From NCBI RefSeq assembly GCF_051903065.1, contig NZ_CP178438.1: a stretch of DNA of 64,000 nt; one strand, written 5' to 3'. The notes under the pieces are model-generated. The model was not told the origin of the DNA. It saw only the letters and a list, made by a program, of their open reading frames with translations, and searched no databases. This DNA is from Escherichia coli (GTDB lineage: Bacteria > Pseudomonadota > Gammaproteobacteria > Enterobacterales > Enterobacteriaceae). Below are positions 109-27,904 of the stretch, one piece after another. The position numbers were made by a program, and so were the translations under genes. Positions within the stretch are counted from its first letter, which is position 1, and the number at the start of each line of letters is the position of its first letter.

Positions 109-151
<43 letters not shown>

Positions 152-168
152 AGCAAGAATGGGCAATA

Positions 169-816
<648 letters not shown>

Positions 817-919
817 AGAAATGTAATGAATCCTGCCATCAGGTTACTCCATAATTTTGTTGGTCAAGACAGTTAATTACGTGACGTATGCTCAGGCACC
901 GGATGCCGTTTTACAGGGC

Positions 920-1651: not shown

Positions 1652-2499
1652 GATGAGAGATCTCCGTTGATTTGGATTGACTTCACATCATTAATCACTG
1701 CGGTAAAACTTTACGGCATCCCGCCATTGAGCAACGCCAATGGCTCCTGATTAAAACAGAATGAATCCCCCACGAAGAAAAGATAAACCTACACGCAGGG
1801 TAAAACACACAACAACGGCATAAATGGTTTTTAAAAACTACAAAGCCCGAAGGGAAACGGATCAACAGAACGTGCAAACAAAACACCAAAAACGCAATCA
1901 GAACGCTTTCTGCTGCTGTGAATCAACAACAATACCAAAACCTACAGCTTAACCACAAAACTCAATCACAGAGCCGAATAGCGCGTTTAAAACCTGTTTA
2001 CAGATAACCCTGCCCCGAGAACAAAAACCACCAACATCAGAATCGATTTTCTTATCCTGAAAACGTTACTTTTCAACACACCATAAAAACGATTAACCAT
2101 CGATAACGTAAATCTCATCTGAATCAAAACACCAGAACCAATCATCACGCTTTTTCTGAAAAGAGCCTTATGATGAAGATAATCACCTTGCACTGAGAAA
2201 AAACACCAGGGCCAGTTAATCATCTCATCAATCTTATCGCTACAAAATCATCCATAAAACCATTTAACAAAATCATCGTAAGCACACAGTAAATCACGCC
2301 AGGTTATCTCAGCCGGATTTGCGTTTTACATAAAAACACTTGTCTCAGGTTAACGACTAAAAACACGAAAACTCATAAAAGGTTAAATGTAACATCAGAA
2401 AAATAGAATATCATATTGATTGCTTAAACAGGAAAGATTGTTTTGTAGTAGCATTAAGCTGATTTTAGTTAACGTAAAAACAGGACTGACAGGTTTACT

Positions 2500-2722
2500 A
2501 AACTGGATGTGTATCAGACAAAGCAATGTGTATAACAATACTTAATGAAAACACTTGTAGAATTGTTTATGAAAACATGTGTATGTCTGGTAAAACACTT
2601 AGTAGAAAATACGTGTATAACACTTACTGAAATGCTTAGTAAAAACACTTAGTAAAATATGTGTAGAATTATCTATTTAAAAAGATATGTATATAACACT
2701 TAATAAAAACATGTGTATATAG
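2500..2722. repeat. Array of degenerate direct repeats (ATGTGTAT / AACACTTA units), iteron- or operator-like
   Basis: At least seven copies of ATGTGTAT-like and five of AACACTTA(G/A)TA-like motifs within about 220 bp of AT-rich DNA; fused unit GTGTATAACACTTA seen at about 2612 and 2687. Confidence 0.55.
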
Positions 2723-3401
2723 TATCATACCGACATTCTCAACATCTTCAGACACTCATGCAGACTGAATGTTCGTTTCAGTTTTTCACGGCCAGCATGG
2801 GGATTTTTGTTCTGAAAACGGAGCAGATTTACTCTGGAATTATTTTTCTGTCCCCGTATTTCAGGCCCCAGAAAAGACAATCCGAAGCAAACCGTTTGTC
2901 AGCTTCCATATCATCTTTTACCCCCGGAAAGTGATCGCGTTTTACAACCAGAATGACAGCCATACTGATTATGTCGTCTCCCGGCCCCCTTCACATATAA
3001 CATGCATGCCTGTCATTGCTTACTGCTCCACATGACAGGATTTCACATACAGGATGCGCATTCAGTGTTTTTATCGCCACTATAACAGACAGATTACTGT
3101 CGCTTTTACTCTTCAGATTGTTAATCTGACCACAAGAACAGTCGAACAGTACAACGACACACCCAAGGAGGATATGAGCAGTAGTTGATAGCATGTTTTA
3201 ATTTATTATGAATAGATCAAGAATAGATCGTGAATAGTTAGAGAATAGTTCTTCAGCATCTCACAGAGTGATCAAGCCTTGAAGTGATTGCTTTTTGAAC
3301 ACAAGTCCGGATGCAATGTTTTTTTGTTAACTTCCTTGCATATTCGATTTCCATGTGATAGTGAAAATCACCAGAAGAGAATGCGATTGAGGCGTAATCA
3401 G

Positions 3402-4211
3402 ATGAAACAATATGAAGATGGTTATAACGTGAATGGATATAGCTGGGAAAATGAAACAATTGAGTATTTGTTGAATGATAAACAACTGACAGATAATCAC
3501 ATACCTGAATGGGTTAAAAAAAATGAAATTGCAGCATTCTGGTTCTGGTTAGTTATAATTAACACAGATCCCAAACTCCTTGGGGTTCGTAATGAATTAG
3601 GGTTCAATACAGCCATGATGGGGCTGATTCCTGCGGGGAGTATACCCATAACAACAATTCCTTCAGATCATGAAATGAGACTGGATGTTATAAGCAAATG
3701 GATTAATGCATTAATCCTTGACAATCAATCAGATTGCTTCATCTCAACAATGCATCAAAACTGGCTGCAGATCGAAAAGAGAAACGAAGCCAAATGGCTT
3801 AAAAAGAATACAGAACAACTCGAATGGGCATGGAAATATATCAATGCACGCATCCCGCACACGTATCTTTCCTGGTTTTATCCTGTAAGTGATAACGAAA
3901 GATACATTGCTATCGTAGTTTTACTAAAAATTTTATTCCCCGCAGATACACCATACTTACAGCAGCCAAAAGTACTTCACTATGGGGTTGCCGCAAAAGA
4001 AAAATTTTTCGACAAGATGCACAATGCATTCCGAAAACAGTTTACCGACGGAAAAAAAGATAAGCGGGTACAAATCAACGTTAAAATATCATCAGATGCA
4101 AAACGTACTCTGGACAGACTGACCAGAGAACTGAAAACAACACAACAGGCTGTCCTGGAACATCTGATTCAGAACCACAGGCTGGTGATTCAGAACCACA
4201 GACTGTATTAA
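3402..4211 (+). CDS. Hypothetical protein with C-terminal ribbon-helix-helix-like segment
   Basis: ORF 3288-4211; preferred ATG at 3402 (MKQYEDG) preceded by GAGG. C-terminus RVQINVKISSDAKRTLDRLTRELKTTQQAVLEHLIQ resembles an RHH DNA-binding motif. N-terminal about 220 aa unrecognised. Confidence 0.5.
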   Translation: MKQYEDGYNVNGYSWENETIEYLLNDKQLTDNHIPEWVKKNEIAAFWFWLVIINTDPKLLGVRNELGFNTAMMGLIPAGSIPITTIPSDHEMRLDVISKWINALILDNQSDCFISTMHQNWLQIEKRNEAKWLKKNTEQLEWAWKYINARIPHTYLSWFYPVSDNERYIAIVVLLKILFPADTPYLQQPKVLHYGVAAKEKFFDKMHNAFRKQFTDGKKDKRVQINVKISSDAKRTLDRLTRELKTTQQAVLEHLIQNHRLVIQNHRLY

Positions 4212-5155
4212 CTTTCACCACTTCTGCTCCTGCCGATTTTCTTCTTTTGGTAGTGTCTCCTGGCTGCGGATATCAGATACTTTTCCGTCATTTTGTTGCA
4301 GAACTCTTCAATGTAGTTAATCATTTTCTGGTGTGCTTTCAGCTTTTCTTCCCCGGGGGACGCTTTCAGATAAATGTCCTCCTTTTCCACAAGCGCATTG
4401 ACAAACTCCCCTAAACATCCCTGGTTATAAAGCGACGTGAAAAACAACACATCCCCCAGTCTCTCCAGTAACTGTGGTTTATCCCCGAAATGTTTTTTTA
4501 TACTTTCAAAAGGTTTTCTATTTTCCGGATCAAAAAAAACACTTAATCCCAGTCGCTTATATTCCTGGTAAAAAAGTTCAAACGTCGGGGATGCTGAACG
4601 GCAAATAAACGAAGACTGCGCCCATGGATTAAAATCTGTGACACGCCTCCCCTCCCGCACTTCCTGTCGTGTCAGCGGTGGTTCAGCAAACCAGGCGTCC
4701 AGCTCAGCCGAATCGTTATCCCTGCTCAAAACCTCATACAAACTGCCCGTGAACGGTTGAGCCGTTTGTTTTGTTGCTTCGCCTTCTGATTGTCTGAATC
4801 CATCCACTTTTCTCCGGATATTACGCGGAATCAGCATAAAAGGCGGGACATTAAGTGATAAACGTTTACCCGTCATGCGATACCATTGACCTACCTCAAC
4901 CTTAATCCGTGTATCTGACTTTAGCTCAAGTGCCATTATGTTAAGCAGGTACAGATAACGCACCGTATAACGATTAAAATGTTTCTCCGGATCAAACGAT
5001 TCTGACCGTTCTCCTCTGTACACGAGTCTGCTGCGCTTCAGTATTCGCAGAGTATATTTCCAGGCCGGACTTTTACAAATGGCGGTAACTCTGGCCTTAT
5101 TAACAATGTCGCGTAATGCATCAATCTGTTGTGCAGTCATCTCTTCCCTCCACAC
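4208..5155 (-). CDS. Hypothetical protein, no recognisable domain
   Basis: 315 aa ORF (alternative start 5140, MTAQQ). Convergent with the previous gene; stop codons overlap within TTAA. Uninterrupted long ORF, basic C-terminal tail. Confidence 0.5.
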   Translation of the reverse strand: MWREEMTAQQIDALRDIVNKARVTAICKSPAWKYTLRILKRSRLVYRGERSESFDPEKHFNRYTVRYLYLLNIMALELKSDTRIKVEVGQWYRMTGKRLSLNVPPFMLIPRNIRRKVDGFRQSEGEATKQTAQPFTGSLYEVLSRDNDSAELDAWFAEPPLTRQEVREGRRVTDFNPWAQSSFICRSASPTFELFYQEYKRLGLSVFFDPENRKPFESIKKHFGDKPQLLERLGDVLFFTSLYNQGCLGEFVNALVEKEDIYLKASPGEEKLKAHQKMINYIEEFCNKMTEKYLISAARRHYQKKKIGRSRSGES

Positions 5156-5246
5156 TTTGTCACTCCAGATTTTTTCACGCCCATATTACCTGAATGATAA
5201 ACCGGATTAGTGTGATCCGGTTCAGTGAAATCAACAGGATACCGGT

Positions 5247-6131
5247 ATGTCATTCAGCCATTCTTCCCTCTCCGCACAAGTGAAATCATATCTGACGTTT
5301 CTTCCTGAAGAAATTCGCCAGAAAATCCTTGAACATCTCCACGGTGTTATTCATTACGAGCCCGTGATTGGCATTATGGGTAAATCCGGCACCGGCAAAA
5401 GCAGTCTGTGTAATGCCATTTTTCAGTCCCGTATCTGCGCCACGCATCCCCTGAACGGCTGCACCCGCCAGGCTCATCGCCTCACCCTGCAGATTGGTGA
5501 ACGCAGAATGACGCTGGTCGATCTGCCCGGCATTGGTGAAACACCGCAGCATGATCAGGAATACCGGGAGCTTTACCGTCAGTTACTGCCGGAACTGGAT
5601 CTGATTATCTGGATCCTGCGGGCTGATGAACGTGCGTATGCTGCTGATATTGCCATGCATCAGTTTTTACTGAATGAAGGTGCAGATCCCTCGCGTTTTC
5701 TGTTTGTTCTCAGCCATGCCGATCGCGTGTTTCCTGCTGAAGAATGGAACGACGCAGAAAAATGCCCGTCCCGTCAGCAGGAACTCTCACTGGCGACAGT
5801 AACAGCCCGGGTGGCCACCCTGTTCCCGTCATCATTTCCGGTACTCTCCGTTGCAGCGCCTGTCGGCTGGAATCTTCCGGCACTGGTGTCACTGATGATC
5901 CACGCACTGCCACCACAGGCAACCAGCGCGGTTTATTCACATATCCGGGGGGAAAACCGCTCTGAACAGGCCCGGAAACACGCACAACAGACTTTTGGTG
6001 ACGCCATCGGGAAAAGTTTTGACGACGCCGTTGCCCGGTTCAGTTTTCCGGCCTGGATGTTACAGCTTCTGCGTAAAGCCCGGGCCCGCATTATCCACCT
6101 ACTGGTCACACTGTGGGATCACCTGTTCTGA
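5247..6131 (+). CDS. YeeP/YkfA/YfjP-family P-loop GTPase of CP4-like islands
   Basis: Walker A GIMGKSGTGKSS; G3-like DLPGIGE; recalled similarity to the YeeP/YfjP/YkfA family. Confidence 0.8.
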   Translation: MSFSHSSLSAQVKSYLTFLPEEIRQKILEHLHGVIHYEPVIGIMGKSGTGKSSLCNAIFQSRICATHPLNGCTRQAHRLTLQIGERRMTLVDLPGIGETPQHDQEYRELYRQLLPELDLIIWILRADERAYAADIAMHQFLLNEGADPSRFLFVLSHADRVFPAEEWNDAEKCPSRQQELSLATVTARVATLFPSSFPVLSVAAPVGWNLPALVSLMIHALPPQATSAVYSHIRGENRSEQARKHAQQTFGDAIGKSFDDAVARFSFPAWMLQLLRKARARIIHLLVTLWDHLF

Positions 6132-6249
6132 GCGCCCCGGAGTCCCCCGTGGCAACCGTATACCTTTACACGACAACGGATTACGGTAACCACTGCCGTA
6201 TACCGTCTGTCATTATCAATAACACGCTCTTTAATTTCAGAGGTCAGTC

Positions 6250-6927
6250 ATGAATACCAGAATGCTTTTTCCCCTGCTGTTCACTGTGGCATCCTTCTCC
6301 ACCTCCGCCGGTAACTGGGCTGTCAAAAACGGCTGGTGTCAGACCATGACGGAAGATGGTCAGGCGCTGGTAATGCTGAAAAATGGCACGATTGGTATTA
6401 CCGGCCTGATGCAGGGATGCCCGAATGGCGTACAGACGCTCCTGGGCAGCCGTATCAGTATTAACGGTAACCTGATCCCCACATCACAAATGTGTAATCA
6501 GCAGACAGGATTCAGGGCTGTTGAGGTGGAAGTCGGACAGGCGCCGGAAATGGTCAAAAAAGCCGTTCACTCCATAGCAGAGCGTGATGTGTCCGTTTTA
6601 CAGGCATTTGGTGTACGAATGGAATTCACCCGCGGTGATATGCTGAAGGTCTGTCCGAAATTTGTCACATCACTTGCCGGTTTTTCCCCGAAACAGACAC
6701 CCGCCATTAATAAAGATTCCGTCCTGCAGGCTGCCCGGCTGGCATACGCCCGGGAATATGACGAGGAAACAACAGAAACCGCTGATTTTGGCTCTTACGA
6801 AGTAAAAGGCAATAAGGTTGAGTTTGAAGTGTTCAATCCTGAAGACCGTGCGTACGACAAAGTGACCGTCACGGTTGGTGCTGACGGTAATGCCACCGGT
6901 GCCAGCGTTGAATTTATCGGAAAATAG
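6250..6927 (+). CDS. Secreted protein of unknown function (N-terminal signal peptide)
   Basis: 225 aa; hydrophobic N-terminus MNTRMLFPLLFTVASFSTSAG; occupies the slot downstream of the GTPase where flu (Ag43) sits in CP4-44. Confidence 0.55.
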   Translation: MNTRMLFPLLFTVASFSTSAGNWAVKNGWCQTMTEDGQALVMLKNGTIGITGLMQGCPNGVQTLLGSRISINGNLIPTSQMCNQQTGFRAVEVEVGQAPEMVKKAVHSIAERDVSVLQAFGVRMEFTRGDMLKVCPKFVTSLAGFSPKQTPAINKDSVLQAARLAYAREYDEETTETADFGSYEVKGNKVEFEVFNPEDRAYDKVTVTVGADGNATGASVEFIGK

Positions 6928-6956
6928 CCGGTATGTCGGACTGTCACCCTGTTTAA

Positions 6957-7166
6957 TTGCCCGAAGGCCCTTTCTCACGCGAACAGGCGGTTGCCGTCAC
7001 AACAGCTTACCGCAATGTGCTTATTGAAGATGACCAGGGAACGCATTTCCGGCTGGTTATCCGTAATGCTGAAGGTCAGTTGCGCTGGCGGTACTGGAAT
7101 TTTGAATCCGATGCCGGAAAACAGCTTAATGTGTGGCTCGCCAGTGAAGGGCTTCTCAGACAATAA
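6957..7166 (+). CDS. Small conserved island protein (DUF905-like)
   Basis: 69 aa ORF followed directly by a hairpin plus T-tract terminator; family recalled from CP4-like islands; start uncertain. Confidence 0.4.
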
Positions 7167-7189
7167 ACGTCATTCATTTCATCCATCAG

Positions 7190-7220
7190 GCCGCGTCTTC
7201 TCCGGGAGGCGCGGCTTTTT
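7190..7220 (+). terminator. Rho-independent terminator
   Basis: GCCGCG ... CGCGGC stem followed by TTTTT. Confidence 0.6.
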
Positions 7221-7256
7221 CATTTATATCGCTAACTCATTCATAAGGAGCAAATC

Positions 7257-8075
7257 ATGCGATTAGCAAGTCGTTTTGGTTATGCGAACCAGATACGCCG
7301 TGACCGCCCCTTAACTCGCGAAGAACTGATGCAGGTCGTCCCCAGCGTATTCGGGGAAGATAAGCACACATCCAGAAGCGAGAACTATACCTGGATCCCC
7401 ACCATCACCGTGCTGGAAAGCCTGCAGCGGGAAGGCTTTCAGCCCTTCTTTGCCTGCCAGACCCGCGTACGTGACCCGGGCCGCCGGGGGTATACCAAAC
7501 ACATGCTGCGTCTGCGCCGTGACGGGGAGATAAACGGACAACATGTCCCTGAAATCATCCTGCTGAACTCCCATGACGGTACCTCCAGCTACCAGATGCT
7601 GCCGGGTTACTTCAGGTTCGTCTGCCAGAACGGCTGCGTCTGTGGTCAGTCTCTGGGGGAAGTGCGTGTTCCGCACCGGGGAAATGTGGTGGACAGAGTC
7701 ATTGAAGGGGCTTACGAAGTGGTGGGCGTTTTTGACCGGATTGAGGAAAAGCGTGATGCCATGCAGTCGCTGGTCCTGCCGCCACCGGCACGCCAGGCGC
7801 TGGCACAGGCGGCACTGACTTACCGTTATGGTGACGAACATCAGCCCGTCACCACCGCCGACATTCTGACGCCACGACGCCGGGAGGATTACGGTAAGGA
7901 CCTGTGGAGTGCTTATCAGACCATCCAGGAAAATATGCTGAAAGGCGGGATTTCTGGTCGCAGCGCTAAAGGAAAACGTATCCACACCCGTGCCATTCAC
8001 AGCATCGACACGGACATTAAGCTCAATCGCGCATTGTGGGTGATGGCAGAAACGCTGCTGGAGAGCATGCGCTGA
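7257..8075 (+). CDS. DUF932-family protein (YfjQ/YafZ-like)
   Basis: 272 aa; recalled similarity to YfjQ/YafZ; conserved position upstream of the antirestriction gene. Confidence 0.75.
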   Translation: MRLASRFGYANQIRRDRPLTREELMQVVPSVFGEDKHTSRSENYTWIPTITVLESLQREGFQPFFACQTRVRDPGRRGYTKHMLRLRRDGEINGQHVPEIILLNSHDGTSSYQMLPGYFRFVCQNGCVCGQSLGEVRVPHRGNVVDRVIEGAYEVVGVFDRIEEKRDAMQSLVLPPPARQALAQAALTYRYGDEHQPVTTADILTPRRREDYGKDLWSAYQTIQENMLKGGISGRSAKGKRIHTRAIHSIDTDIKLNRALWVMAETLLESMR

Positions 8076-8166
8076 TGCTGTTTCCCTGAAAGTGCAACCC
8101 TGACTCACGTCTGTACCAGTCCCCGGGCATTCTTCCATTCATTTACTTTTTATAAGGAATCATCTC

Positions 8167-8652
8167 ATGACAACCTTTTCGCATAGCTCCACCACGCCTT
8201 CTGTTTCCGTAACCACTGCACCAGGGAATAACCAGTCTCAACTGGTTGCCACTCCCGTCCCTGATGAACAGCGCATCAGTTTCTGGCCGCAACATTTTGG
8301 CCTCATTCCACAGTGGGTGACCCTGGAGCCCCGTGTCTTCGGCTGGATGGACCGTCTTTGCGAAGACTACTGCGGTGGTATCTGGAATCTGTACACCCTG
8401 AACAACGGTGGGGCATTTATGGTACCCGAACCGGATGACGATGATGACGAAACATGGGTACTGTTCAATGCCATGAACGGCAACCGCGCTGAAATGAGCC
8501 CGGAAGCCGCCGGCATTGCCGCCTGTCTGATGGCGTACAGTCATCACGCCTGTCGTACAGAGAATTATGCCATGACGGTCCATTATTATCGGTTGCGGGA
8601 TTACGCCCTGCAGCATCCGGAATGCAACGCCATTATGCGCATCATCGACTGA
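8167..8652 (+). CDS. Antirestriction protein, ArdB/KlcA-like (YfjX/YafX family)
   Basis: 161 aa; acidic stretch PEPDDDDDETW; family and position typical of CP4-like islands. Confidence 0.75.
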   Translation: MTTFSHSSTTPSVSVTTAPGNNQSQLVATPVPDEQRISFWPQHFGLIPQWVTLEPRVFGWMDRLCEDYCGGIWNLYTLNNGGAFMVPEPDDDDDETWVLFNAMNGNRAEMSPEAAGIAACLMAYSHHACRTENYAMTVHYYRLRDYALQHPECNAIMRIID

Positions 8653-8667
8653 ATGGAGAGAAGCACA

Positions 8668-9144
8668 ATGCAACAGCTTTCCTTTCTGCCCGGAGAGATG
8701 ACGCCCGGCGAGCGCAGCCTCATTCTGCGGGCCCTGAAAACCCTGGACCGCCATCTTCATGAACCCGGTGTGGCCTTCACCTCCACGCATGCGGCACGGG
8801 AATGGCTGATTCTGAACATGGCGGGACTGGAGCGGGAAGAGTTCCGGGTACTGTATCTGAACAACCAGAATCAGCTGATTGCCGGTGAAACCCTCTTCAC
8901 AGGCACCATCAACCGCACGGAAGTCCATCCCCGGGAGGTAATTAAACGTGCCCTGTACCACAATGCCGCTGCCGTGATACTGGCACACAACCACCCGTCC
9001 GGTGAAGTCACCCCCAGTAAGGCAGATCGCCTTATCACGGAACGCCTGGTACAGGCACTGGCCCTGGTGGATATCCGGGTACCGGACCATCTGATAGTTG
9101 GTGGCAACCAGGTTTTCTCCTTTGCGGAACACGGTCTGCTTTAA
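8668..9144 (+). CDS. yeeS: RadC-like JAB/MPN domain protein (YeeS/YfjY/YkfG family)
   Basis: JAMM motif HNHPSG; near identity to recalled YeeS from MQQLSFLPGEMTPGERSL; ORF track starts 15 nt upstream at 8653. Confidence 0.85.
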   Translation: MQQLSFLPGEMTPGERSLILRALKTLDRHLHEPGVAFTSTHAAREWLILNMAGLEREEFRVLYLNNQNQLIAGETLFTGTINRTEVHPREVIKRALYHNAAAVILAHNHPSGEVTPSKADRLITERLVQALALVDIRVPDHLIVGGNQVFSFAEHGLL

Positions 9145-9212
9145 CCCGTCACCGCCACAACCATATCACACCTGTTTTCACTTTTATCTTCTGTCTTCAG
9201 AGGTATCCCACT

Positions 9213-9434
9213 ATGAAAATCATCACCCGTGGCGAAGCCATGCGTATTCACCGTCAGCATCCGGCATCCCGTCTTTTTCCGTTCTGTACCGGCAAATACC
9301 GCTGGCACGGCAGTGCTGAAGCGTATACCGGTCGTGAAGTGCAGGATATTCCCGGTGTGCTGGCCGTGTTTGCTGAACGCCGTAAGGACAGTTTTGGCCC
9401 GTATGTCCGGCTGATGAGCGTCACCCTGAACTGA
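9213..9434 (+). CDS. yeeT: DUF987 protein (YeeT-like)
   Basis: 73 aa MKIITRGEAMRIHRQHPASRLFPF... matches recalled YeeT. Confidence 0.85.
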   Translation: MKIITRGEAMRIHRQHPASRLFPFCTGKYRWHGSAEAYTGREVQDIPGVLAVFAERRKDSFGPYVRLMSVTLN

Positions 9435-9513
9435 GTCTGGAAGGGCATTCAGAAGAGCAGAATTATCGCCACCACCGGACCATTCTTAACCAATTTTCTG
9501 TGAGGATTTTATC

Positions 9514-9888
9514 GTGTCAGACACTCTCCCCGGGACAACGCATCCCGACGATAACAACGACCGCCCCTGGTGGGGGCTACCCTGCACCGTGACGCCCTGT
9601 TTTGGGGCACGTCTGGTGCAGGAGGGTAACCGGTTGCATTACCTTGCAGACCGCGCCGGTATCAGAGGCCGGTTCAGCGACGCGGATGCGTACCATCTGG
9701 ACCAGGCCTTTCCGCTGCTGATGAAACAACTGGAACTCATGCTCACCAGCGGTGAACTGAATCCCCGCCATCAGCATACCGTCACGCTGTATGCAAAAGG
9801 GCTGACCTGCAAAGCCGATACCCTCAGCAGTTGTGGTTACGTTTATATGGCTGTTTATCCGACACTGGCACCCGCAACCACCTCATAA
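9514..9888 (+). CDS. cbeA: CbeA (YeeU) antitoxin of the CbtA/CbeA type IV toxin-antitoxin system
   Basis: 124 aa; near identity to recalled YeeU (MSDTLPGTT...WWGLPCTVTPCFGARLVQEGNRLHYLADRAGIRG). Confidence 0.9.
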   Translation: MSDTLPGTTHPDDNNDRPWWGLPCTVTPCFGARLVQEGNRLHYLADRAGIRGRFSDADAYHLDQAFPLLMKQLELMLTSGELNPRHQHTVTLYAKGLTCKADTLSSCGYVYMAVYPTLAPATTS

Positions 9889-9934
9889 CCCCGAATATCT
9901 CACCTTTAGCACTACCAGTTACAGAGAACTTAAG

Positions 9935-10312
9935 ATGAAAACATTACCTGACACACACGTACGGGAGGCATCGCGCTGCCCGTCTCCCGTCACCATCTGG
10001 CAGACACTGCTCACCCGACTGTTGGACCAGCATTACGGCCTCACACTGAATGACACACCGTTCGCTGATGAACGTGTGATTGAGCAGCATATTGAGGCAG
10101 GCATTTCACTGTGCGATGCGGTGAACTTTCTCGTTGAAAAATACGCACTGGTACGTACCGACCAGCCAGGATTCAGCGCCTGTACCCGTTCTCAGTTAAT
10201 AAACAGTATTGATATCCTCCGGGCCCGCCGGGCAACCGGCCTGATGGCCCGCGACAATTACAGAACGGTAAATAACATTACCCTGGGTAAACATCCGGGG
10301 GCGAAACAATGA
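9935..10312 (+). CDS. cbtA: CbtA (YeeV) toxin, cytoskeleton-binding type IV toxin
   Basis: 125 aa from ATG 9935 (MKTLPDTHV...); matches recalled YeeV (LNDTPFADERVIEQHIEAGISLCDAVNFLVEKYALVRTDQPGFSA); directly downstream of cbeA. Confidence 0.9.
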   Translation: MKTLPDTHVREASRCPSPVTIWQTLLTRLLDQHYGLTLNDTPFADERVIEQHIEAGISLCDAVNFLVEKYALVRTDQPGFSACTRSQLINSIDILRARRATGLMARDNYRTVNNITLGKHPGAKQ

Positions 10313-12031: not shown

Positions 12032-12295
12032 ATGCCTACCAGTGTATCCCTCAGTCCTTACTTTGAAACGTTTATCCGCGAACAAATAGAAAGTGGTCGG
12101 TACAACAATACAAGTGAAGTCATTCGTGCCGGACTTCGTGCTCTGGAAGAACGGGAACAGCAGATAAAGCTTGAATCACTCCAGAGCGCCGTGGCCGCAG
12201 GCATCAACAGCGGTGAAAGTAAAAGTGCTGAAGAGGTATTCGGGCGACTGACGCACAAATACAAAAAGATGGCAGAAGGTGAACAGCCAATATGA
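12032..12295 (+). CDS. parD: ParD-family type II antitoxin (RHH)
   Basis: 87 aa; start overlaps ParE by ATGA; motif SEVIRAGLRALEEREQ typical of ParD/COG3609. Confidence 0.8.
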   Translation: MPTSVSLSPYFETFIREQIESGRYNNTSEVIRAGLRALEEREQQIKLESLQSAVAAGINSGESKSAEEVFGRLTHKYKKMAEGEQPI

Positions 12296-12618
12296 AACTG
12301 ACTGTTTCACCATTAGCAGAACACGATCTTGAAGCTATAGGTGACTGGATCGCTCAGGATAATCCTGTCCGTGCAATCAGTTTTACCGAAGAGCTTTACC
12401 AACAATGTCTGTTGATAGCCGAATCGCCAGTACTCTACAGAGAAAGACCCGAGTTAGGGGCTGGGATCAGAGGTTGTTCGTATGGTCGTTACCTTCTGCT
12501 GTTCAGGGTACTGGATACTGAAGTTCGTATCGAACGTATCGTTCATGGTTCCCGGGATATCAACAGGGTACTTGCAGAGCCAGACGACAAACCATCAGAT
12601 CATTTCTGGCAGCCATAA
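12292..12618 (+). CDS. parE: ParE/RelE-family type II toxin
   Basis: 108 aa; 4-bp overlap with the upstream antitoxin; RelE/ParE-like size and context. Confidence 0.8.
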   Translation: MKLTVSPLAEHDLEAIGDWIAQDNPVRAISFTEELYQQCLLIAESPVLYRERPELGAGIRGCSYGRYLLLFRVLDTEVRIERIVHGSRDINRVLAEPDDKPSDHFWQP

Positions 12619-12895
12619 ACAAAATCTGTGCGTTAACGCTCCCTAACACAGGTAGCCAGGTATTTTATAAATCTCTGTATTTTGTTGTCACTTCGATTCC
12701 GCGATTCAGCATATCGAACCAGACAAAATGATTACAACAAACCACAAGAAAGAGGGATTATAGCGTCAAAAGAATTCGAATTGCACATGGGGGCCTCATT
12801 GGTGGCCTCAAAAAGAACAAGGATAAAACAGTCGATACAAAACAATTGGTTATATAACCAGTTTCATTCCGAGTCCGGGCACCACTATTCATAAG

Positions 12896-12920: not shown

Positions 12921-13244
12921 CACTTTCTGGCTACGGTAGATTTCTGGCCATTGCAAAGCATTATCTATTGGCTGGTTTTTTTCGCCTTTTCACGGATGTT
13001 CGTGACGTTTATACACCTCAGTACCCTCTGATATACCTTCTCTCTGCTGCCTGAAAACAAGAAATTCAATAGGTTAATAATTTATGCGTTTGTCCATCTA
13101 AAGGCGACAGTTGCCACAGTATCTAAACTGACTGATGCAAAGTCCCTCTACCCGGTAAGGTATCAGGACCATCAACGCAGACTTTTCGCAACAACCACTA
13201 CCAAAATACCGCGTAAATAACCTTCCAGAACAAGCATGACTTTT

Positions 13245-13928
13245 TTAACTCTCTTTTCCCCACCTGAGAAGCACCTCTTCCGCAATCCCCACAGGCAAAA
13301 ACTCCTGCTCCAGACGACCACGCGGTAAACGGGTTAAGTAGCGATAAAAATCGGCCTCCTCGTTAAGCAAGCCATCAGGTACAGCTTCCTTCGCTATGAC
13401 CGGTTCTGGAACGGCGCTATGACTGGCATACTGCTCAAACAACTCACGGTTCATGAGCAGGGCATCAAGCGTCGGACGACAACGCCTGGCTCTCGCCAGC
13501 ATCAGTAGTCCCCAGCTATCCATGTCCCCCCAATAGGCAACGCGTTTTTCATCCAGAACAGAACTGGATAGCCATTGCACGTCCAGGCCACAGCCTAAAA
13601 TCGCGATAGTGTCAGATAATGCTGGAAGATGATGCAAACACTGCTCATTTTCAACCACCAGCACTTGCGACGCGGGTAATGTTGTTTCCGCCAGTTCCGC
13701 CGTTGTTACCCGGCATTTTTTAAAAGGAAGCAAGCCGGGTGATAATGGTACAACTAAAACCCAGTGACTGGACTCATCAAAAGCATCAAGAAAAGTTGTT
13801 AATCCCTGCTCGCTGGCTTCTCCTGAAAATCGCACGTCCAACTGACCATAGTGTTGTTCCACAAACGTAATTTCGGCAACCGTCCACTGTGCCCAGTGAT
13901 TACGGTAATGCTGCGTTTTATCCACCAT
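13245..13928 (-). CDS. Toprim-like (Topo VI-A/Spo11/JetD C-terminal-type) domain protein, standalone
   Basis: 227 aa; motifs VLVVENEQCLHHL and YWGDMDSWGLLML resemble the Toprim glutamate and DxD signatures of DUF2220/JetD; family assignment from recall only. Confidence 0.5.
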   Translation of the reverse strand: MVDKTQHYRNHWAQWTVAEITFVEQHYGQLDVRFSGEASEQGLTTFLDAFDESSHWVLVVPLSPGLLPFKKCRVTTAELAETTLPASQVLVVENEQCLHHLPALSDTIAILGCGLDVQWLSSSVLDEKRVAYWGDMDSWGLLMLARARRCRPTLDALLMNRELFEQYASHSAVPEPVIAKEAVPDGLLNEEADFYRYLTRLPRGRLEQEFLPVGIAEEVLLRWGKES

Positions 13929-13945
13929 GTCAGACCTCCCGGGTA

Positions 13946-15400
13946 TCAGTCTCGTTGTTTTTCCTGCGCCAGCGTAAAGATTTGAGCCCGGAGTTGTTGT
14001 TCAGCCTGCAGGACCGCCTGCTGACGCTGCAGTGAGACTTCAGGGAGCAACTTCAACTGCCGAAGCTGCTCTTCTACCGGTACGGTCTGCCGGAAGCTTG
14101 TCAGCATGCCAAAGACCTGCGATTTAAGCTCACTGACGGTAATGTATTTTCCTCTCTGACCATCAAGCGCATTCAGTTTATGGGCAAGTGCCTGAAGCTG
14201 TGTCATTCCTTCATGCCAGCCATTCATTGTATCGACAGGAAGTACTGAGACATTAACCTGTTGCTGCCACTGCTGTGTCAGAGGCTTAGCCTGCTCCGGC
14301 CACAACGACTGAGCTTGTTCTGTAAGTTTTCTGGCATAAGTGATATTCCAGTCAGGAGGTGATTTATCCAGTCGGGCCAGCTGCTGCTGTGTCTGTGCAA
14401 TAAGATCCTGCGGTAACGGAGTCTGCTGACGCAACATCCGCAGCTGTTCAGACGTGAGAGGTGCAGGGAACGGAGCCAGTGAAGCAGCTAGCTGATTCTG
14501 TAGAGGGTCTGGCCGGTGAATAAAATGCCAGCTCCACACTGAAACTATGCTTATCACCAACATGGTACACATCCCGGCGGCAAAGGATTTCCACTTTTTA
14601 ACCGGAACAGGCATTGTCGACAGCACTTCCACATTCGGCTGCGACTGCGGTTCCCGTTGAGCAACGTAAACCCACTGTACTGCACTCCCTGGCGTATCTT
14701 CATTCGGTCCACCAGAAAAGTCTCTCGTGGATGCTATCGCATCATTTGTCACGGTGGCAGGCAACCCGATACCAGGCTGAATGCTCGAGCCGGTACTGGT
14801 TATGCCATTGCTGTTTTCCAGCCGGGCAGCACTATTGTGCATCAGGATACGCAATGTATCGAGTTGGCTGAGATGTTTTAGCTCCAGGCGCTGTAGTACC
14901 TCTCCAAGGCCTGTAAGCAGTTGCTCCACCCGGTACAGCTGGTTGATGTCGCTGTAATTTAACGGGAGCGATCGCATTCGTTGCTGCAGGCGCTGACTCA
15001 GGCTGCTGAGGATTTCCATGCGGGCATGAACTGGATGCGGCCACAGAGTCCCCCACTGATGGCTTATCAGTGCCTCGAGTATCGCCAGCCCTTCATTGAG
15101 CCCGAATAAGCCAGCCAGCTGCGTACGCGCAAGCGTATACCAGGCTGCCGTTTGCAACTCCACGCCGTTCTGCTCAAACAGTGAGAGACAAAGTTTTTCG
15201 ACATACTGCCAGCTCACATCCGGGCGAGCCGGATGTGTTAGCTTACTCAGTTCATCACGCAGGGCGGCATAATCCGGTAGCATGCGCGGGTCGCCGCCGG
15301 TTTTTAATTTACGCTTGGGGATATCATTCATGGTCAGTTGTCCATTAGACGTACCAGGGGCTATTAAAGGGTATTGTTTATGCGGCTTCACTTTCTGCAT
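13946..15400 (-). CDS. ImpA_N-domain, membrane-anchored type VI secretion accessory protein (VasL/TagA-like)
   Basis: N-terminal GGDPRMLPDYAALRDEL...DVSWQYVEKL...LQTAAWYTLAR...GLNEGLAILEALISHQWGTLWP matches the ImpA_N signature; one predicted transmembrane helix (FAAGMCTMLVISIVSVWSW); start may be the internal ATG at 15331. Confidence 0.7.
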   Translation of the reverse strand: MQKVKPHKQYPLIAPGTSNGQLTMNDIPKRKLKTGGDPRMLPDYAALRDELSKLTHPARPDVSWQYVEKLCLSLFEQNGVELQTAAWYTLARTQLAGLFGLNEGLAILEALISHQWGTLWPHPVHARMEILSSLSQRLQQRMRSLPLNYSDINQLYRVEQLLTGLGEVLQRLELKHLSQLDTLRILMHNSAARLENSNGITSTGSSIQPGIGLPATVTNDAIASTRDFSGGPNEDTPGSAVQWVYVAQREPQSQPNVEVLSTMPVPVKKWKSFAAGMCTMLVISIVSVWSWHFIHRPDPLQNQLAASLAPFPAPLTSEQLRMLRQQTPLPQDLIAQTQQQLARLDKSPPDWNITYARKLTEQAQSLWPEQAKPLTQQWQQQVNVSVLPVDTMNGWHEGMTQLQALAHKLNALDGQRGKYITVSELKSQVFGMLTSFRQTVPVEEQLRQLKLLPEVSLQRQQAVLQAEQQLRAQIFTLAQEKQRD

Positions 15401-15995
15401 ATTCGAGACTCTGCAGATACTTTAGCGCCAGCGGGTCAGCAATATATTCAACCTGCCCGTGGTGACGCTCCACCTCATCGATTATCCGGCTGAGTTCACC
15501 CCGGAAAAACTTCTTATGCAGGTTGATTCGGTTAATCCGGTAGCTTTCCAGAGGGTCATGTAGTGTCTTTTCAAGCGCAGGAGCGTCATCGCTGGAAATC
15601 ATGGCGTGTGCGTCAAAATCAAACAGCACGGCTGCCCCGCTCAGTTCTTTCACGCGCTCCATAGGCTCCAGCCGTCGGGCCATGCCGATTTTGAAGACGT
15701 TTTCACCGAAGGAGCCGATATTAGAAATTACATACACATGTCCCTGCTTCGTGAACTGGGCCATAGATTTGGCGCGTTCATACTGCTGATGAACGTCCTG
15801 TATTTTCCGCTCCAGCTCCAGACGCTGTCTTTCCAGTTCATCCCTGTGAGCACCTTCTACGGCGAGCAGGGCTTCTTCCAGGAATACCGGTACACATTTT
15901 ACCGACCGGTCGTCGATACGAAGAACGAGTGCGCCAATATCAAATACTCCCCACTCAACCAGCAGGTCCGTAACGGATGTACTGATCAGTGTCAA
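15378..15995 (-). CDS. T5orf172 (GIY-YIG-like) domain protein with N-terminal coiled coil
   Basis: GHVYVISN...FKIGMARRLEPMERVKEL...LEKTLHDPL...INLHKKFFRGEL matches the T5orf172/Mug113 pattern; overlaps tssE by 41 bp and the VasL ORF by 23 bp, so the start is uncertain. Confidence 0.55.
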   Translation of the reverse strand: MTLISTSVTDLLVEWGVFDIGALVLRIDDRSVKCVPVFLEEALLAVEGAHRDELERQRLELERKIQDVHQQYERAKSMAQFTKQGHVYVISNIGSFGENVFKIGMARRLEPMERVKELSGAAVLFDFDAHAMISSDDAPALEKTLHDPLESYRINRINLHKKFFRGELSRIIDEVERHHGQVEYIADPLALKYLQSLEYAESEAA

Positions 15996-16425
15996 GATAC
16001 TGCTGTTGCTTCAGGTGTCTCAGCATCACTCGTCCCTCGGGCATAAACTCGGTGCCGTAACGCACGAGGCCAATCCCCTTAAGCTCAGCATCAATGGCAT
16101 AACGAAGCTCGCCGGGGACGCTCTGCTCCAGCAGGATGACAGTAATTTTTTTCAGGCGCGGTTCGTATTTGAGCAGGACGGCAGACAATGTGCCCATCAG
16201 CTCATGGGCCGTTCCCGGCATGCCCTGGAGAACTCTGGTCATATCCGGCAGGCCATAGTCCGGCAGATGCGCCAGCGTGCCGGCACGGCAGTTGAGGATA
16301 CGCTGCATATTGTCGAGTACGGACAAAATGACCTGGTTCTGCTCGCTGACCTGGTGCAGGTCGAGGCCGCCGGTGAAGTTGCCATAAAGAGTTTCATACA
16401 ATGAAGGACGGGATGACTCACTCAT
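15955..16425 (-). CDS. tssE: Type VI secretion baseplate subunit TssE (gp25-like)
   Basis: 156 aa; motifs SLYETL, LDNMQRILNCRAGTLAHLPDYGLPD, LKYEPRL typical of the TssE/GPW-gp25 family. Confidence 0.75.
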   Translation of the reverse strand: MSESSRPSLYETLYGNFTGGLDLHQVSEQNQVILSVLDNMQRILNCRAGTLAHLPDYGLPDMTRVLQGMPGTAHELMGTLSAVLLKYEPRLKKITVILLEQSVPGELRYAIDAELKGIGLVRYGTEFMPEGRVMLRHLKQQQYLDTDQYIRYGPAG

Positions 16426-16960
16426 CTTTCAGCGCCTTCAGGGTCAGGCGGTTGTTACCGGCCTCAATCACCCGGGCTTTATCCGGATCAAGGTCATCAC
16501 GGCTCAGCACCACCCGCCAGGTGTTGTTCACCTGGTCTGGCGACATAAACATGCCAGCCACTGCGACATACTGCGCATTTTCATCCATCGGCATATCCAC
16601 CATCACCGCCCCACCCGGCTGCAGGCGGATGTCTTTCTCAGCTACCAGGTCTGCTTTAATGGCCTGACTGTCCGCCCTGAACAGTGACGGGTAGTCCGTC
16701 GTGTCAAAGGTTTTGCGGTCTTTAAGCTGGTAAATACGCACCACCGTCGACAATGCCACGCCGCCTGCATTGCTGTTCACTGCCTCACGGGCCCGAATAT
16801 CCAGATGCAGAGTTTTTATCTGCTTATAAAAAATCGATTTGGTCACAGCAACGGTGCCGTCTGTCACTTTTTGCGTCAGCCCACAGCCCGCCAGCATCAA
16901 GGTGATACCCGCGGCCAGCGCAGCCAGAGGAAATTTACCAGCGGTAATCGCCATCTTCAT
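16418..16960 (-). CDS. tssJ: Type VI secretion lipoprotein TssJ (SciN/VasD-like)
   Basis: Start MKMAITAG with lipobox LAGC; VVRIYQLKD...LQPGG...AVAGMF pattern of the TssJ family; ATG at 16960 checked on the sequence. Confidence 0.75.
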   Translation of the reverse strand: MKMAITAGKFPLAALAAGITLMLAGCGLTQKVTDGTVAVTKSIFYKQIKTLHLDIRAREAVNSNAGGVALSTVVRIYQLKDRKTFDTTDYPSLFRADSQAIKADLVAEKDIRLQPGGAVMVDMPMDENAQYVAVAGMFMSPDQVNNTWRVVLSRDDLDPDKARVIEAGNNRLTLKALKDE

Positions 16961-17580
16961 CGGTCTCCCTGCGGTGAATATTTTCCTGTACCCGCTCATA
17001 GCGGCCCAGATTAATGGTGATTGTTTTTGGGTGTGATGCGGTCCTGGCCGCATTCAGCGGTCGCATCACGGCAGTGCGGCCCAGTTGCACCGCCCCTGCG
17101 TTGGGTTTACTGCTCATGGTCGCGTCAGGAAGCAGACTGCGATCGACACACAGCTGTAGCCGCACATCCAGGCGAGACCCAAGATACACGTGCAGGAGCG
17201 CCATCAGGTCCGCGTGAAGCTCCCCGCCCGATAACCAGCCCTGCACTTCTGCCGGGTCAGTGGTGGTCAGGCGCATCAGCACCTGGCTGTTCACGTCGGC
17301 GGCATAGTTGCCCATCACCGGTCGGTTTGTCAGGGTGACGGGCTGGCTAACGCTCATGGTCAATGGCTTCTTCAGCGGCACACGGCGTTTGTCGTGGTGC
17401 CAGATTTTCGCCTGCGTGTTGGGTGCCAGCAGGCGCACCAGCGAGGCCATGCCTTCTGCGGTACGCCCCGGCAGTAACATGACCGGCAGCAGTGCCAGAA
17501 AGCGCGAAGCCGGGGTCGCGATACTGTCCGTGCAGCCGTTAATCCCGAGCCCGGCCAGTCCCAGCAGGTACTGCGAGGTT
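16935..17580 (-). pseudogene. C-terminal fragment of a type VI secretion-associated gene, truncated by IS1
   Basis: The reading frame runs without a native start into the IS1 end at 17581; identity (TssG or other) not resolved. Confidence 0.5.
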
Positions 17581-17595
17581 GGTAATGACTCCAAC

Positions 17596-18099
17596 TTATT
17601 GATAGTGTTTTATGTTCAGATAATGCCCGATGACTTTGTCATGCAGCTCCACCGATTTTGAGAACGACAGCGACTTCCGTCCCAGCCGTGCCAGGTGCTG
17701 CCTCAGATTCAGGTTATGCCGCTCAATTCGCTGCGTATATCGCTTGCTGATTACGTGCAGCTTTCCCTTCAGGCGGGATTCATACAGCGGCCAGCCATCC
17801 GTCATCCATATCACCACGTCAAAGGGTGACAGCAGGCTCATAAGACGCCCCAGCGTCGCCATAGTGCGTTCACCGAATACGTGCGCAACAACCGTCTTCC
17901 GGAGCCTGTCATACGCGTAAAACAGCCAGCGCTGGCGCGATTTAGCCCCGACATAGCCCCACTGTTCGTCCATTTCCGCGCAGACGATGACGTCACTGCC
18001 CGGCTGTATGCGCGAGGTTACCGACTGCGGCCTGAGTTTTTTAAGTGACGTAAAATCGTGTTGAGGCCAACGCCCATAATGCGGGCTGTTGCCCGGCAT
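17596..18099 (-). CDS. insB: IS1 InsB
   Basis: 167 aa matching recalled IS1 InsB. Confidence 0.9.
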
Positions 18100-18293
18100 C
18101 CAACGCCATTCATGGCCATATCAATGATTTTCTGGTGCGTACCGGGTTGAGAAGCGGTGTAAGTGAACTGCAGTTGCCATGTTTTACGGCAGTGAGAGCA
18201 GAGATAGCGCTGATGTCCGGCGGTGCTTTTGCCGTTACGCACCACCCCGTCAGTAGCTGAACAGGAGGGACAGCTGATAGAAACAGAAGCCAC
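18018..18293 (-). CDS. insA: IS1 InsA
   Basis: 91 aa [43 protein letters not shown]... matches IS1 InsA. Confidence 0.9.
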
Positions 18294-18457
18294 TGGAGCA
18301 CCTCAAAAACACCATCATACACTAAATCAGTAAGTTGGCAGCATCACCAACGGAGACTATGTATTAAGAAGCCAATCGTAAAAACGGTTCCCTGGCGAGA
18401 TAAACGACAAACAAATGGAAAGCCGGATGATATTTACCTTCATCCGGCATTATTGAC

Positions 18458-20140
18458 TTACGAAACTAACATCCCGGTAAACACATACGCCTGCAACAGC
18501 GTGATAATGCCGATAACGCTGGCAAAAATCAGACTGTGCTTCACGGTGTAGCGGAACAGTTCAGATTCTCGGCCCACCATGCCCGTCGCGGCGCAGGCCA
18601 CGGCGATAGATTGCGGGGAGATCATCTTGCCAGTTACGCCGCCGCTGGTATTTGCTGCCACCAGCAGAGTGTCAGAGACGTTGATTTGCTGCGCCGTGGT
18701 CGATTGCAGTGAACCAAACAGGGCGTTAGAGGAGGTGTCCGAGCCGGTAAGGAATACGCCCAGCCAGCCGAGAAACGGTGAGAAGAACGGGAACATCACG
18801 CCTGTACCTGCCAGTACCAGCGCCAGCGTGGTGGACATGCCGGAATAGTTGGTGACGAAAGCGAACGCCAGCACCATGCCAATCGACAATATCGGCCACT
18901 TCAGACTAATTAGCGTTTCGGCAAAGACGCCAATCCCTTTCTTGATGCCCACGCCGAGGATGAAGATAGAGATAATCGCCGCAATAAAAATAGCGGTGCC
19001 GCCAGCCGAGAGGGGGTCGAATTTAAACACCGCATCCATCGGCGTTGGTTGGGCGACAATGGGTGCCGCTTTCAACACTTGTTGATGCAAATGAGGGATC
19101 TGGAAATTAATCACCAGTGAATAAAACGCGCCGCCCGGAGCAAATAACGCTTTAAACGGCTTCATGGTCCAGATGGTGACCAGCACCGTTAAGATTAAAA
19201 ACGGTGACCACGCTCGAATGATTTGCCCCAGACTATATTCTGAAGGCACGGGACCGCCAGAAGATGGCTTATTTACCACCATCGCACCTGCGGATTGTCC
19301 CATGCTGATTGCCGTTTCGGTATTTTTCGGCCGCCAGACTTTAAGGAATAAAGCGAGTGAGACGATACTCACCAGCGCCGAAGTAATATCCGGCAGTTCC
19401 GGACCAATATAATTAGAGGTAAAGAACTGAGTGACAGCGAAGCTTCCCCCAGCAACCAGCGCCGCTGGCCACGTCTCTTTCACCCCTTTCCAGCCGTCCA
19501 TCATTGCTACCAGCCAGAACGGCACAAGAACCGACAGGAACGGTAACTGACGTCCCGCCATTGCGCCAATGTGGAACGGATCGATTCCCGTTACCTGACC
19601 GGCGACCAGAATCGGCACGCCCAACGCACCAAACGCCACCGGCGCAGTATTGGCAATCAGACACAGCCCTGCCGCGTATAAAGGTTTGAAGCCCAGGCCC
19701 ACCAGCAGAGCACCAGTAATCGCCACCGGAGCACCAAAGCCAGCCGCCCCTTCCAGCAGCGCGCCAAAGGAGAAACCAATCAGTAACACCTGCAAACGCT
19801 GATCGTCAGTGATGGAGATGACCGAGCTGCGGATAATATCAAACTGACCGCTGGCAACGGTTAATTTATAGAGGAATACCGCTGCAACAATAATCCAGGC
19901 AATAGGCCATAAACCATAAATAAAGCCATAGCCCGCAGCAGCAAATGCCATATCAATCGGCATTTTAAAGGCGAATATCGCAATCAGGATAGATAATATA
20001 AGGGTTATCGCTCCAGCGACATGTCCTTTCAGACGTAATACCGCGAGTGCAACGAAGAAGAATATTATCGGGATCAGGGCGACCAGAGCGGATAGCCCCA
20101 GTCCTCCCATCGGCATATACATTTGGGTCCAGGTAACCAT
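18458..20140 (-). CDS. glcA: Glycolate/lactate permease GlcA (LctP family)
   Basis: 560 aa polytopic membrane protein; position downstream of glcB. Confidence 0.85.
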
Positions 20141-27898: not shown

Positions 27899-27904
27899 CT
27901 GGTA

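Follow-up and report, generated by a model that had tools for sequence, protein, structure and literature searches.

A short region of an Escherichia coli chromosome, positions 13245-17580 of a 64-kb stretch (the window, meaning the whole stretch of DNA that was analysed), raises the question of what two open reading frames (ORFs) with nuclease domains are doing among the remains of a type VI secretion system (T6SS). An earlier note, made from the sequence alone, had described them as interleaved with the T6SS genes and suggested that they could be orphan effector or immunity genes, or defence cargo that had taken over the locus. The region is here read as the tail of a T6SS cluster cut by the insertion sequence IS1, in which both nuclease ORFs are 5′-truncated relics of ordinary gene decay, one of the Wadjet gene jetD and the other of a homologue of the phage-defence nuclease SNIPE (PD-lambda-1); the probability of this reading is put at about 0.88. 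Three rearrangements, one after the other, at the E. coli pheV-glcA locus have made the region a graveyard of genes. The biology is known, and the pseudogene status is largely present already in the standard annotation by PGAP.

Composition of the region

Six minus-strand ORFs lie head to tail in 13245-17580 and end at a copy of IS1. Their positions had been given correctly in the earlier note, as the ORF list agrees. The features are as follows, with truncated genes marked by a prime.

13245-13843, minus strand: jetD′, covering the 3′ half of the Wadjet gene jetD (residues 185-382 of JetD and the stop), from PF09983, PADLOC and alignment with strain CX12
13844-13928, minus strand: 29 codons from the start of a SANT/Myb-like gene, read in frame with jetD′ and supplying the ATG, from an ORF match in strain BA92
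13946-15400, minus strand: tagA (vasL), T6SS accessory gene, ORF apparently intact, from Pfam ImpA_N and VasL
15378-15884, minus strand: SNIPE′, 168 C-terminal codons and the stop of a SNIPE/PD-lambda-1-family gene, from PF10544, PADLOC and tblastn
15955-16425, minus strand: tssE, baseplate subunit, intact ORF, from TIGR03357 and PGAP
16418-16954 (PGAP start), minus strand: tssJ, outer-membrane lipoprotein, intact ORF, from TIGR03352 and PGAP
16935-17580, minus strand: tssG′, the C-terminal ~215 codons of the 367-codon tssG, truncated by IS1, from TIGR03347 and PGAP
17581-18348, minus strand: IS1, 768 bp, canonical and IS1A-type, 100% identical to another IS1A copy

The PGAP annotation was taken, as a guide only, from the collinear genome 23CRST027, which is 98-100% identical to the window over positions 6200-63787. 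The identity is 100% only over 13000-17700 and 28327-63787; it is 98.2% overall over 6200-28334 and 79-93% over 1-6200.

The jetD fragment

The first two features form one ORF of 227 amino acids (aa). Its Toprim/DUF2220 assignment is upheld by a Pfam match to PF09983 (E 3.7e-42), the former DUF2220, now named JetD_C; the NCBIfam scan gave zero matches. In PADLOC the ORF matches JetD1 (PDLC00532, E 1.6e-101) over profile positions 185-381 of 383 only, and the intact JetD of CX12 matches over positions 1-381. At the DNA level jetD′ is 97.7% identical to the intact jetD of CX12, with the homology ending at 13843/13844, and 97.4% identical over the retained part to jetD of strain GF4-3. When compared by codons with an intact jetD, ORF residues 30-227 fall on residues 185-382 of the 382-aa JetD; 12 of the differences are synonymous and 1 is nonsynonymous. 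The Toprim domain keeps the equivalents of the catalytic, Mg-binding residues E248, D290 and D292. The N-terminal half with the aCAP/DUF3322 domain is missing, since the PADLOC match begins at 185 and the DNA homology stops at 13843. PGAP labels jetD′ a pseudogene, ‘missing N-terminus’, in every genome carrying it.

The N-terminus of the ORF, MVDKTQHYRNHWAQWTVAEITFVEQHYGQ, has another origin. It matches a 105-codon ORF located downstream of vasL in BA92 and, weakly, an annotated SANT/Myb-like protein of strain GXU-23-25-310. Matches of ~80% nucleotide identity to other T6SS remnants begin at ~13839, near the jetD breakpoint. As the first 29 codons match a SANT/Myb-like gene which follows vasL, the 227-aa ORF is an in-frame chimera made at a recombination junction, where codon 29 of that gene was joined to codon 185 of jetD.

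The source of the jetD part can be recognized from the locus itself. In CX12 and GF4-3 an intact jetABCD operon occupies the same site, in the order pheV(-island)-jetD-jetC-jetB-jetA-glcA. GF4-3 is the strain whose JetABCD was biochemically reconstituted (bioRxiv 10.1101/2022.10.04.510915). The window shares with this type I Wadjet/JET nuclease the pheV-jetDCBA-glcA locus and the Toprim domain with E248, D290 and D292. Unlike the GF4-3 protein, the window copy comprises only residues 185-382 behind 29 SANT/Myb-like residues, and jetA, jetB and jetC are not present at the window locus, where tagA is the neighbour upstream (the search did not extend to the rest of the genome). JetD is known to dock on the JetC head through the N-terminal aCAP domain, and perturbing this interface inactivates JET in vivo (bioRxiv 10.1101/2023.11.03.565488).

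The SNIPE fragment

The second nuclease ORF is a mechanical reading frame of 205 aa, which runs on past SNIPE′ to a TTG at 15995 inside tssE and overlaps the end of tssE by 41 nucleotides (nt). It does not start with an ATG, and residues 1-37 are read-through of unrelated sequence from the overlap with tssE. The GIY-YIG/T5orf172 assignment of the earlier note holds: Pfam gives T5orf172 (PF10544, E 1.3e-12) and MUG113, and PADLOC gives PD-Lambda-1 (E 1.9e-65) over profile positions 313-476 of 491. NCBIfam returned zero matches for this ORF. When relatives of 414, 353 and 358 aa were used as tblastn queries, only 15381-15884 was matched within 13000-18000, and no other piece of the gene was found there.

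This segment encodes residues 247-414 of the 414-aa relative from E. coli O104:H4 (WP_000897032.1), that is, only the linker helix and the T5orf172/GIY-YIG domain. The relative matches the PD-Lambda-1 profile over 189-475 and carries N-terminal hydrophobic helices at residues ~11-34 and ~49-70, and these two helices of the transmembrane (TM) anchor have no counterpart in the window. The middle DNA-binding domain (DUF4041 or equivalent) is also missing from SNIPE′, as the profile match starts at 313 of 491. Two TM helices are present in the full-length relatives of this subfamily, in which DUF4041 is not detected by Pfam. SNIPE′ is likewise labelled by PGAP a pseudogene, ‘missing N-terminus’, in every genome in which it occurs.

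SNIPE is the new name of PD-lambda-1, a membrane-bound nuclease which cuts phage DNA during injection; its TM anchor at the N-terminus is followed by DUF4041, which binds DNA, and by the GIY-YIG nuclease domain at the C-terminus (bioRxiv 10.1101/2025.11.03.685801). All three domains are required, and the defence is abolished by deletion of DUF4041 or by the nuclease mutation E414A; the TM-less protein retains nuclease activity in vivo and is toxic because it cleaves the cell's own DNA (bioRxiv 10.1101/2025.11.03.685801). The window copy has in common with SNIPE the C-terminal linker and the T5orf172/GIY-YIG nuclease domain (the profile match with E 1.9e-65). It differs in being reduced to the last 168 codons, with neither the TM anchor nor the DUF4041 equivalent, and in the replacement of conserved residues.

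The pattern of substitutions was compared in four orthologous 504-nt segments, including those of the window, of a Salmonella contig (L011) and of a Logan contig (L012). On the window branch 14 changes are nonsynonymous and 10 synonymous, against 10 and 53 for the remaining three branches combined (Fisher p = 2.6e-4), which shows relaxed selection on the window branch. The two relatives L011 and L012 differ by 50 synonymous and 2 nonsynonymous changes, with a ratio of nonsynonymous to synonymous rates (dN/dS) of 0.007; dN/dS between the window and the Salmonella copy is 0.11. Among 55 columns conserved at ≥90% in 97 homologues, 50 are kept and five are altered (T106A, P124L, V129A, R160H and E162K), and the motif RKEFF has become HKKFF. 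A deviation of 5/55 lies in the tail of the distribution but is not unique among distant homologues, and the branch test is the stronger evidence. The change E162K, at a position 99% conserved in the family, was considered as a catalytic knock-out and rejected, as the GIY-YIG spacing (E...N 13-16 residues) and the PADLOC register make E142, which is kept, the more likely counterpart of the catalytic E414; E162K is not a proven loss of the active site.

The T6SS remnant

The T6SS genes had been recognized correctly as well. TssE and TssJ, which had been named as core parts, both score above the NCBIfam cut-offs, with 78.3 bits against 53.2 for TssE (TIGR03357) and 91.6 bits against 31.6 for TssJ (TIGR03352), the mechanical ORF of the latter extending to 17053. 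The gene at the upstream end had been taken for a C-terminal fragment cut by IS1, and it is a fragment of tssG ending at the IS1 copy at 17581-18348. It matches TIGR03347 over positions 132-299 of 300 with 78.6 bits; that the cut-off of 143.3 is not reached is to be expected when only a part of the gene is left. PGAP labels it a pseudogene, ‘missing N-terminus’, and the full-length tssG is present in strains PapRG-06-5 and 33F4.

The ImpA_N protein had been called VasL-like, and Pfam finds both ImpA_N (E 7e-18) and VasL (PF12486, E 6e-38) in the 484-aa product. PGAP names it ‘VasL domain-containing protein’, with a start corresponding to 15331, and there are partial matches to TssA TIGRFAM models. 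The translation contains a hydrophobic stretch, FAAGMCTMLVISIVSVWSWHFI, so that ImpA_N, a hydrophobic segment and, at the C-terminus, the VasL domain are all found in the same protein. TagA is the class B TssA-like accessory protein (VasL), as the class was defined in PMC6745524. The presence of ImpA_N together with VasL assigns the 484-aa protein to this class.

The absence of sheath, Hcp, VgrG, ClpV and TssM genes, which had been reported for the window, stands for all 64 kb; it is based on the 23CRST027 PGAP annotation and, for positions 1-10000, on the list of ORFs together with an NCBIfam scan that covered the main ones still without assignment. From the complete core set (tssA-M, hcp, vgrG, clpV) only tssE, tssJ, tagA and the tssG fragment remain. 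The intact related clusters of PapRG-06-5, 33F4 and Nissle 1917 share the gene order ...tssF-tssG-tssJ-tssE-(x)-tagA. Compared with an intact cluster, the remnant has lost tssB, tssC, tssK, tssL, tagL, hcp, clpV, vgrG, the PAAR gene, tssM, tssA and tssF by deletion. A secretion system could presumably not assemble from tssE, tssJ and tagA alone.

Neither nuclease ORF is thus the whole, standalone gene which had been assumed: the PADLOC coverage, tblastn, codon comparison and PGAP all give 5′ truncation, and the JetD ORF is chimeric. As jetD′ lacks aCAP and has no jetABC at its locus, SNIPE′ lacks the TM anchor and the middle domain and has replacements at conserved positions, and the T6SS is incomplete, all three most likely have lost their function, to judge from their sequences.

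IS1 and the deletion

The ends of the element, read from the sequence, are flanked by two 9-mers, tgcgaggtt and aacggagac, which differ; a target-site duplication is therefore absent. When mapped to PapRG-06-5, the two flanks lie 49,189 bp apart. The PapRG-06-5 segment missing in the window contains the genes of the Tad pilus, a cluster for CS1-like fimbriae, and the T6SS genes starting with tssB and reaching into the 5′ part of tssG. IS1 marks a deletion junction at which ~49 kb, as measured against PapRG-06-5, was lost. One IS1 copy situated exactly at the junction and lacking a 9-bp target duplication is what is known from IS1-mediated adjacent deletions, and nothing is unusual here by comparison.

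On the other side of IS1 one more feature is needed for the argument.

18349-18464, strand not assigned: 116 bp of island-type sequence beside glcA, matched by PapRG-06-5 from 18349 and by CX12 only from 18465

This stretch is the glcA-proximal edge of the Tad/fimbrial/T6SS island and is absent from the Wadjet-carrying strains. Its presence between IS1 and glcA confirms the descent from an island-bearing ancestor. The ancestor in which the deletion occurred, reconstructed here from PapRG-06-5 as a related strain, was not identical to it. While tagA, SNIPE′ and jetD′ are 99.5-100% identical to PapRG-06-5/33F4, tssJ is 86.8% and tssG′ 89-92% identical, which leaves these two genes at 87-92%. The cluster is a mosaic, with a recombination breakpoint near tssE and the divergent part (16300-17300) covering the 5′ part of tssE, tssJ and tssG′.

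Three rearrangements at the pheV-glcA locus

The ancestral state, the arrival of the island and the IS1 deletion are shown by comparing the window with strains that represent the earlier states. The border of the locus on the pheV side is given by a short repeat.

12866-12884, plus strand: 3′-end copy of tRNA-Phe (pheV), 19 bp, the longest pheV 3′ suffix found in the window

No tRNA gene is located in the window. The repeat is the attR-like right boundary of a pheV-integrated island, and the normal pheV-downstream flank follows to the right of it, near-identical in a three-way alignment from the repeat on. In this alignment the window remains near-identical to CX12 through the flank and the 3′ half of jetD up to 13843.

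The ancestral state was the type I Wadjet operon, pheV-jetD-jetC-jetB-jetA-glcA, as in GF4-3 and CX12. An island of ~54 kb with the Tad pilus, CS1-like fimbriae and a T6SS-1-type cluster then replaced ~6.5 kb, namely jetA, jetB, jetC and codons 1-184 of jetD. At its junction, codon 29 of the SANT/Myb-like gene downstream of tagA was joined in frame to codon 185 of jetD. The timing suggested for the other truncation is earlier, and the incoming T6SS cluster would already have held the 5′-deleted SNIPE/PD-lambda-1-family relic between tssE and tagA. Finally, in the lineage of the window, the IS1-associated deletion of ~49 kb took away the genes for the Tad pilus and the fimbriae, together with the T6SS genes beginning at tssB and ending within the 5′ part of tssG, with tssG′-tssJ-tssE-SNIPE′-tagA-jetD′ left behind.

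The intermediate state is represented by the closest intact clusters, those of PapRG-06-5 and the near-identical 33F4, 32F4 and 33E (four E. coli genomes). All four have the order tssB...tssF-tssG-tssJ-tssE-GIY-YIG′-vasL-jetD′-pheV and carry the same two fragments. The complete order in PapRG-06-5 is glcA, Tad, fimbriae, T6SS (tssB...tssE, GIY-YIG′, vasL), jetD′ and pheV. Among 5,426 complete E. coli genomes, the exact remnant of the window occurs in 3, the intact T6SS cluster with both fragments in 4, and jetD′ joined to a truncated tssL in another 3. Among the matches listed, 13 records contain the jetD 3′ region at 97-98% identity; the two loci inspected from these (CX12 and GF4-3) both have the complete jetABCD operon. 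The junction with tssL was seen in strain 14EC033 (L005, 15146-16123), where jetD′ is joined directly to the truncated tssL (DotU); the T6SS island is the same there, and its internal deletion is another one.

The locus is an example of turnover at the pheV-glcA hotspot, in which a Wadjet operon was overwritten by a T6SS island that was later gutted by IS1, and the overwritten operon is orthologous to the GF4-3 system used in JET biochemistry. Mainly, however, it is of use as a clean negative: the two mystery nucleases of an apparent T6SS remnant prove to be relics, now pseudogenes, of defence systems already characterised.

Alternative explanations

Several observations weigh against complete decay. 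Both ORFs are still open, SNIPE′ over 205 codons and the JetD′ chimera over 227 codons with an ATG start. None of the three catalytic Toprim residues is lost in JetD′, and only one of its 13 differences from the intact jetD is nonsynonymous. In SNIPE′ the retained E142 of the ORF most likely corresponds to the published catalytic E414, as far as the profile register allows, and dN/dS on its branch is ~0.4, still significantly below 1 (binomial p = 0.026). Such a ratio fits a branch part of which predates the truncation, and neutrality is thereby not proven. The open frames and the intact Toprim residues could speak for co-option, in which the expressed fragments serve as minimal stand-alone nucleases with some defence or toxin activity, SNIPE′ with its translation coupled to tssE (the two overlap by 41 nt) and SANT-JetD′ as a free Toprim nuclease. 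The fragments are kept in 7/7 genomes of this lineage, four of them with an intact T6SS, and the TM-less SNIPE construct was active as a nuclease in vivo (bioRxiv 10.1101/2025.11.03.685801). However, the seven genomes are 96-100% identical in the region, so their retention carries little weight. SNIPE′ lacks an ATG and begins with unrelated read-through; its nonsynonymous change is elevated and residues of the conserved motif are lost. An active soluble copy would moreover be counter-selected, given the toxicity of truncated SNIPE through self-DNA cleavage, and JetD requires the docking of aCAP on JetC. Co-option is thus considered quite improbable, with a small residual chance that one of the two ORFs is expressed.

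The two proposals of the earlier note fare worse. Nuclease effectors are frequent T6SS cargo, and the location of both ORFs in or beside the cluster made it reasonable to think of orphan effector or immunity genes, nuclease toxins left in the remnant. To this explanation next to no credence is given: the fragments belong to the families JetD1 (1.6e-101) and PD-Lambda-1 (1.9e-65), which are not T6SS families, and jetD′ has its orthologue in a complete Wadjet operon, which occupies this locus in CX12 and GF4-3. Pfam detects T5orf172/MUG113 and JetD_C only, in line with the reported absence of a PAAR, Rhs or VgrG delivery domain, and no other delivery domain either. The neighbours of SNIPE′ are tssE and tagA, its full-length relative resembles SNIPE homologues in carrying two TM helices at the N-terminus, and the intact cluster has its true effector/immunity modules (lipase, PAAR, Rhs-like) at other places. 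The description of both genes as interleaved with the T6SS is right for the GIY-YIG fragment, which lies between T6SS genes, but not for jetD′, which lies outside the cluster, beyond its last gene, between tagA and the pheV-downstream sequence.

Live defence cargo that colonised a dying T6SS locus is hardly more credible, even though both fragments are of defence-family origin and the tssE-tagA interval elsewhere holds a full SNIPE homologue with a NERD/UvrD helicase (PADLOC C3a187). The same two fragments occupy the same positions in intact T6SS clusters, so they are older than the IS1 deletion. Both are truncated and flagged as pseudogenes by PGAP. The direction of the takeover was also the reverse of that suggested: jetD was the older resident, and the arriving Tad/fimbrial/T6SS island overwrote the Wadjet operon and left the 3′ half of the gene. 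Truncated relics, as opposed to co-opted, secreted or newly arrived genes, remain the preferred reading of both ORFs.

The tssE-tagA interval in other T6SS clusters

The comparison with intact loci which the earlier note had proposed, in order to decide whether the two genes are native to the cluster, gives the following picture. The closest clusters, as in PapRG-06-5 and 33F4, carry both fragments, but in Nissle 1917, a more distant intact T6SS, tssE directly abuts tagA. Elsewhere the interval is variable. BA92 and GXU-23-25-310 have a 101-aa ORF between tssE and vasL. In M18 and on a contig of GCA_029087385.1 a SNIPE homologue is followed by a NERD/UvrD helicase and then by vasL; in O104:H4 the same two genes lie beside a T6SS remnant in which vasL is deleted. 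The helicase matches the PADLOC candidate C3a187. On a Salmonella contig and a Logan contig a SNIPE homologue is located directly upstream of vasL, and on one metagenome contig tssE abuts a 263-aa truncated SNIPE-family copy. For P0041 the gene context is unrelated to T6SS, and P0007 (Pantoea, 358 aa) was not placed on a contig.

Given the direct junction in Nissle 1917 and the variability elsewhere, the GIY-YIG gene is an insertion at the tssE-tagA junction in some T6SS lineages, which decays often and is neither a T6SS component nor an effector. In the window it is SNIPE′ that is found between tssE and tagA (vasL). The association of SNIPE-family genes with the tssE-tagA interval was found in at least six independent contexts and is a minor comparative lead, as it recurs in several enterobacterial T6SS clusters. 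A further-reaching reading, that this junction in enterobacterial T6SS-1-type clusters is a recurrent landing site for a two-TM SNIPE-family nuclease, often accompanied by NERD/UvrD, and that the nuclease-domain stub possibly still has its translation coupled to tssE, is regarded as unlikely; if true, it would mean that a contractile-weapon cluster carries phage-entry defence genes along.

On the Logan contig L012 the TM-encoding 5′ part of the SNIPE homologue (1-180) is in another frame, with a stop inside the second TM helix, and the copy is either a frameshift pseudogene or the product of an assembly error. Three ORFs from other E. coli (P0008, P0009 and P0035) are chimeras with a TssB or IS1 InsA N-terminus in front of the T5orf172 domain; they are further independent truncations of the same SNIPE-family gene. 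In O104:H4 C227-11 (L009, 7016-10241; also L010 and L008) the 414-aa two-TM SNIPE homologue is accompanied by a 581-aa NERD+UvrD helicase (C3a187, E 5.6e-137), near T6SS remnants. A 3.9-kb query spanning this pair was matched over at least 80% in 138 complete E. coli genomes and in parts in ~1,090. The SNIPE homologue and the helicase may form a two-gene defence module.

Surroundings of the locus

The remainder of the window consists of a pheV-type island with CbtA/YeeU and ParDE modules, followed by glcA-glcC, yghO, a cluster of spt and lptFG-like genes, hyb and others. The ParD/ParE-type toxin-antitoxin pair, at 12032-12618, lies at the right end of the pheV island directly before the 19-bp repeat; it is present in 23CRST027 and absent from the islands of 33F4 and CX12. 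The IS1 copy of 23CRST027 adjoining tssG′ differs from the window copy by a 1-bp indel and is annotated as frameshifted. The gene yghO (~27900-29050) is uninterrupted in the window and split by a second IS1A copy in 23CRST027. The yghO-yghR interval (~29450-38460) encodes a fatty acyl-AMP ligase, an epimerase, an acyl carrier protein and a serine palmitoyltransferase (spt), together with extra lptG/lptF paralogues, YtfJ and a lipopolysaccharide-biosynthesis protein. This cluster, which PapRG-06-5 also has, resembles a sphingolipid-like or lipid-export module.

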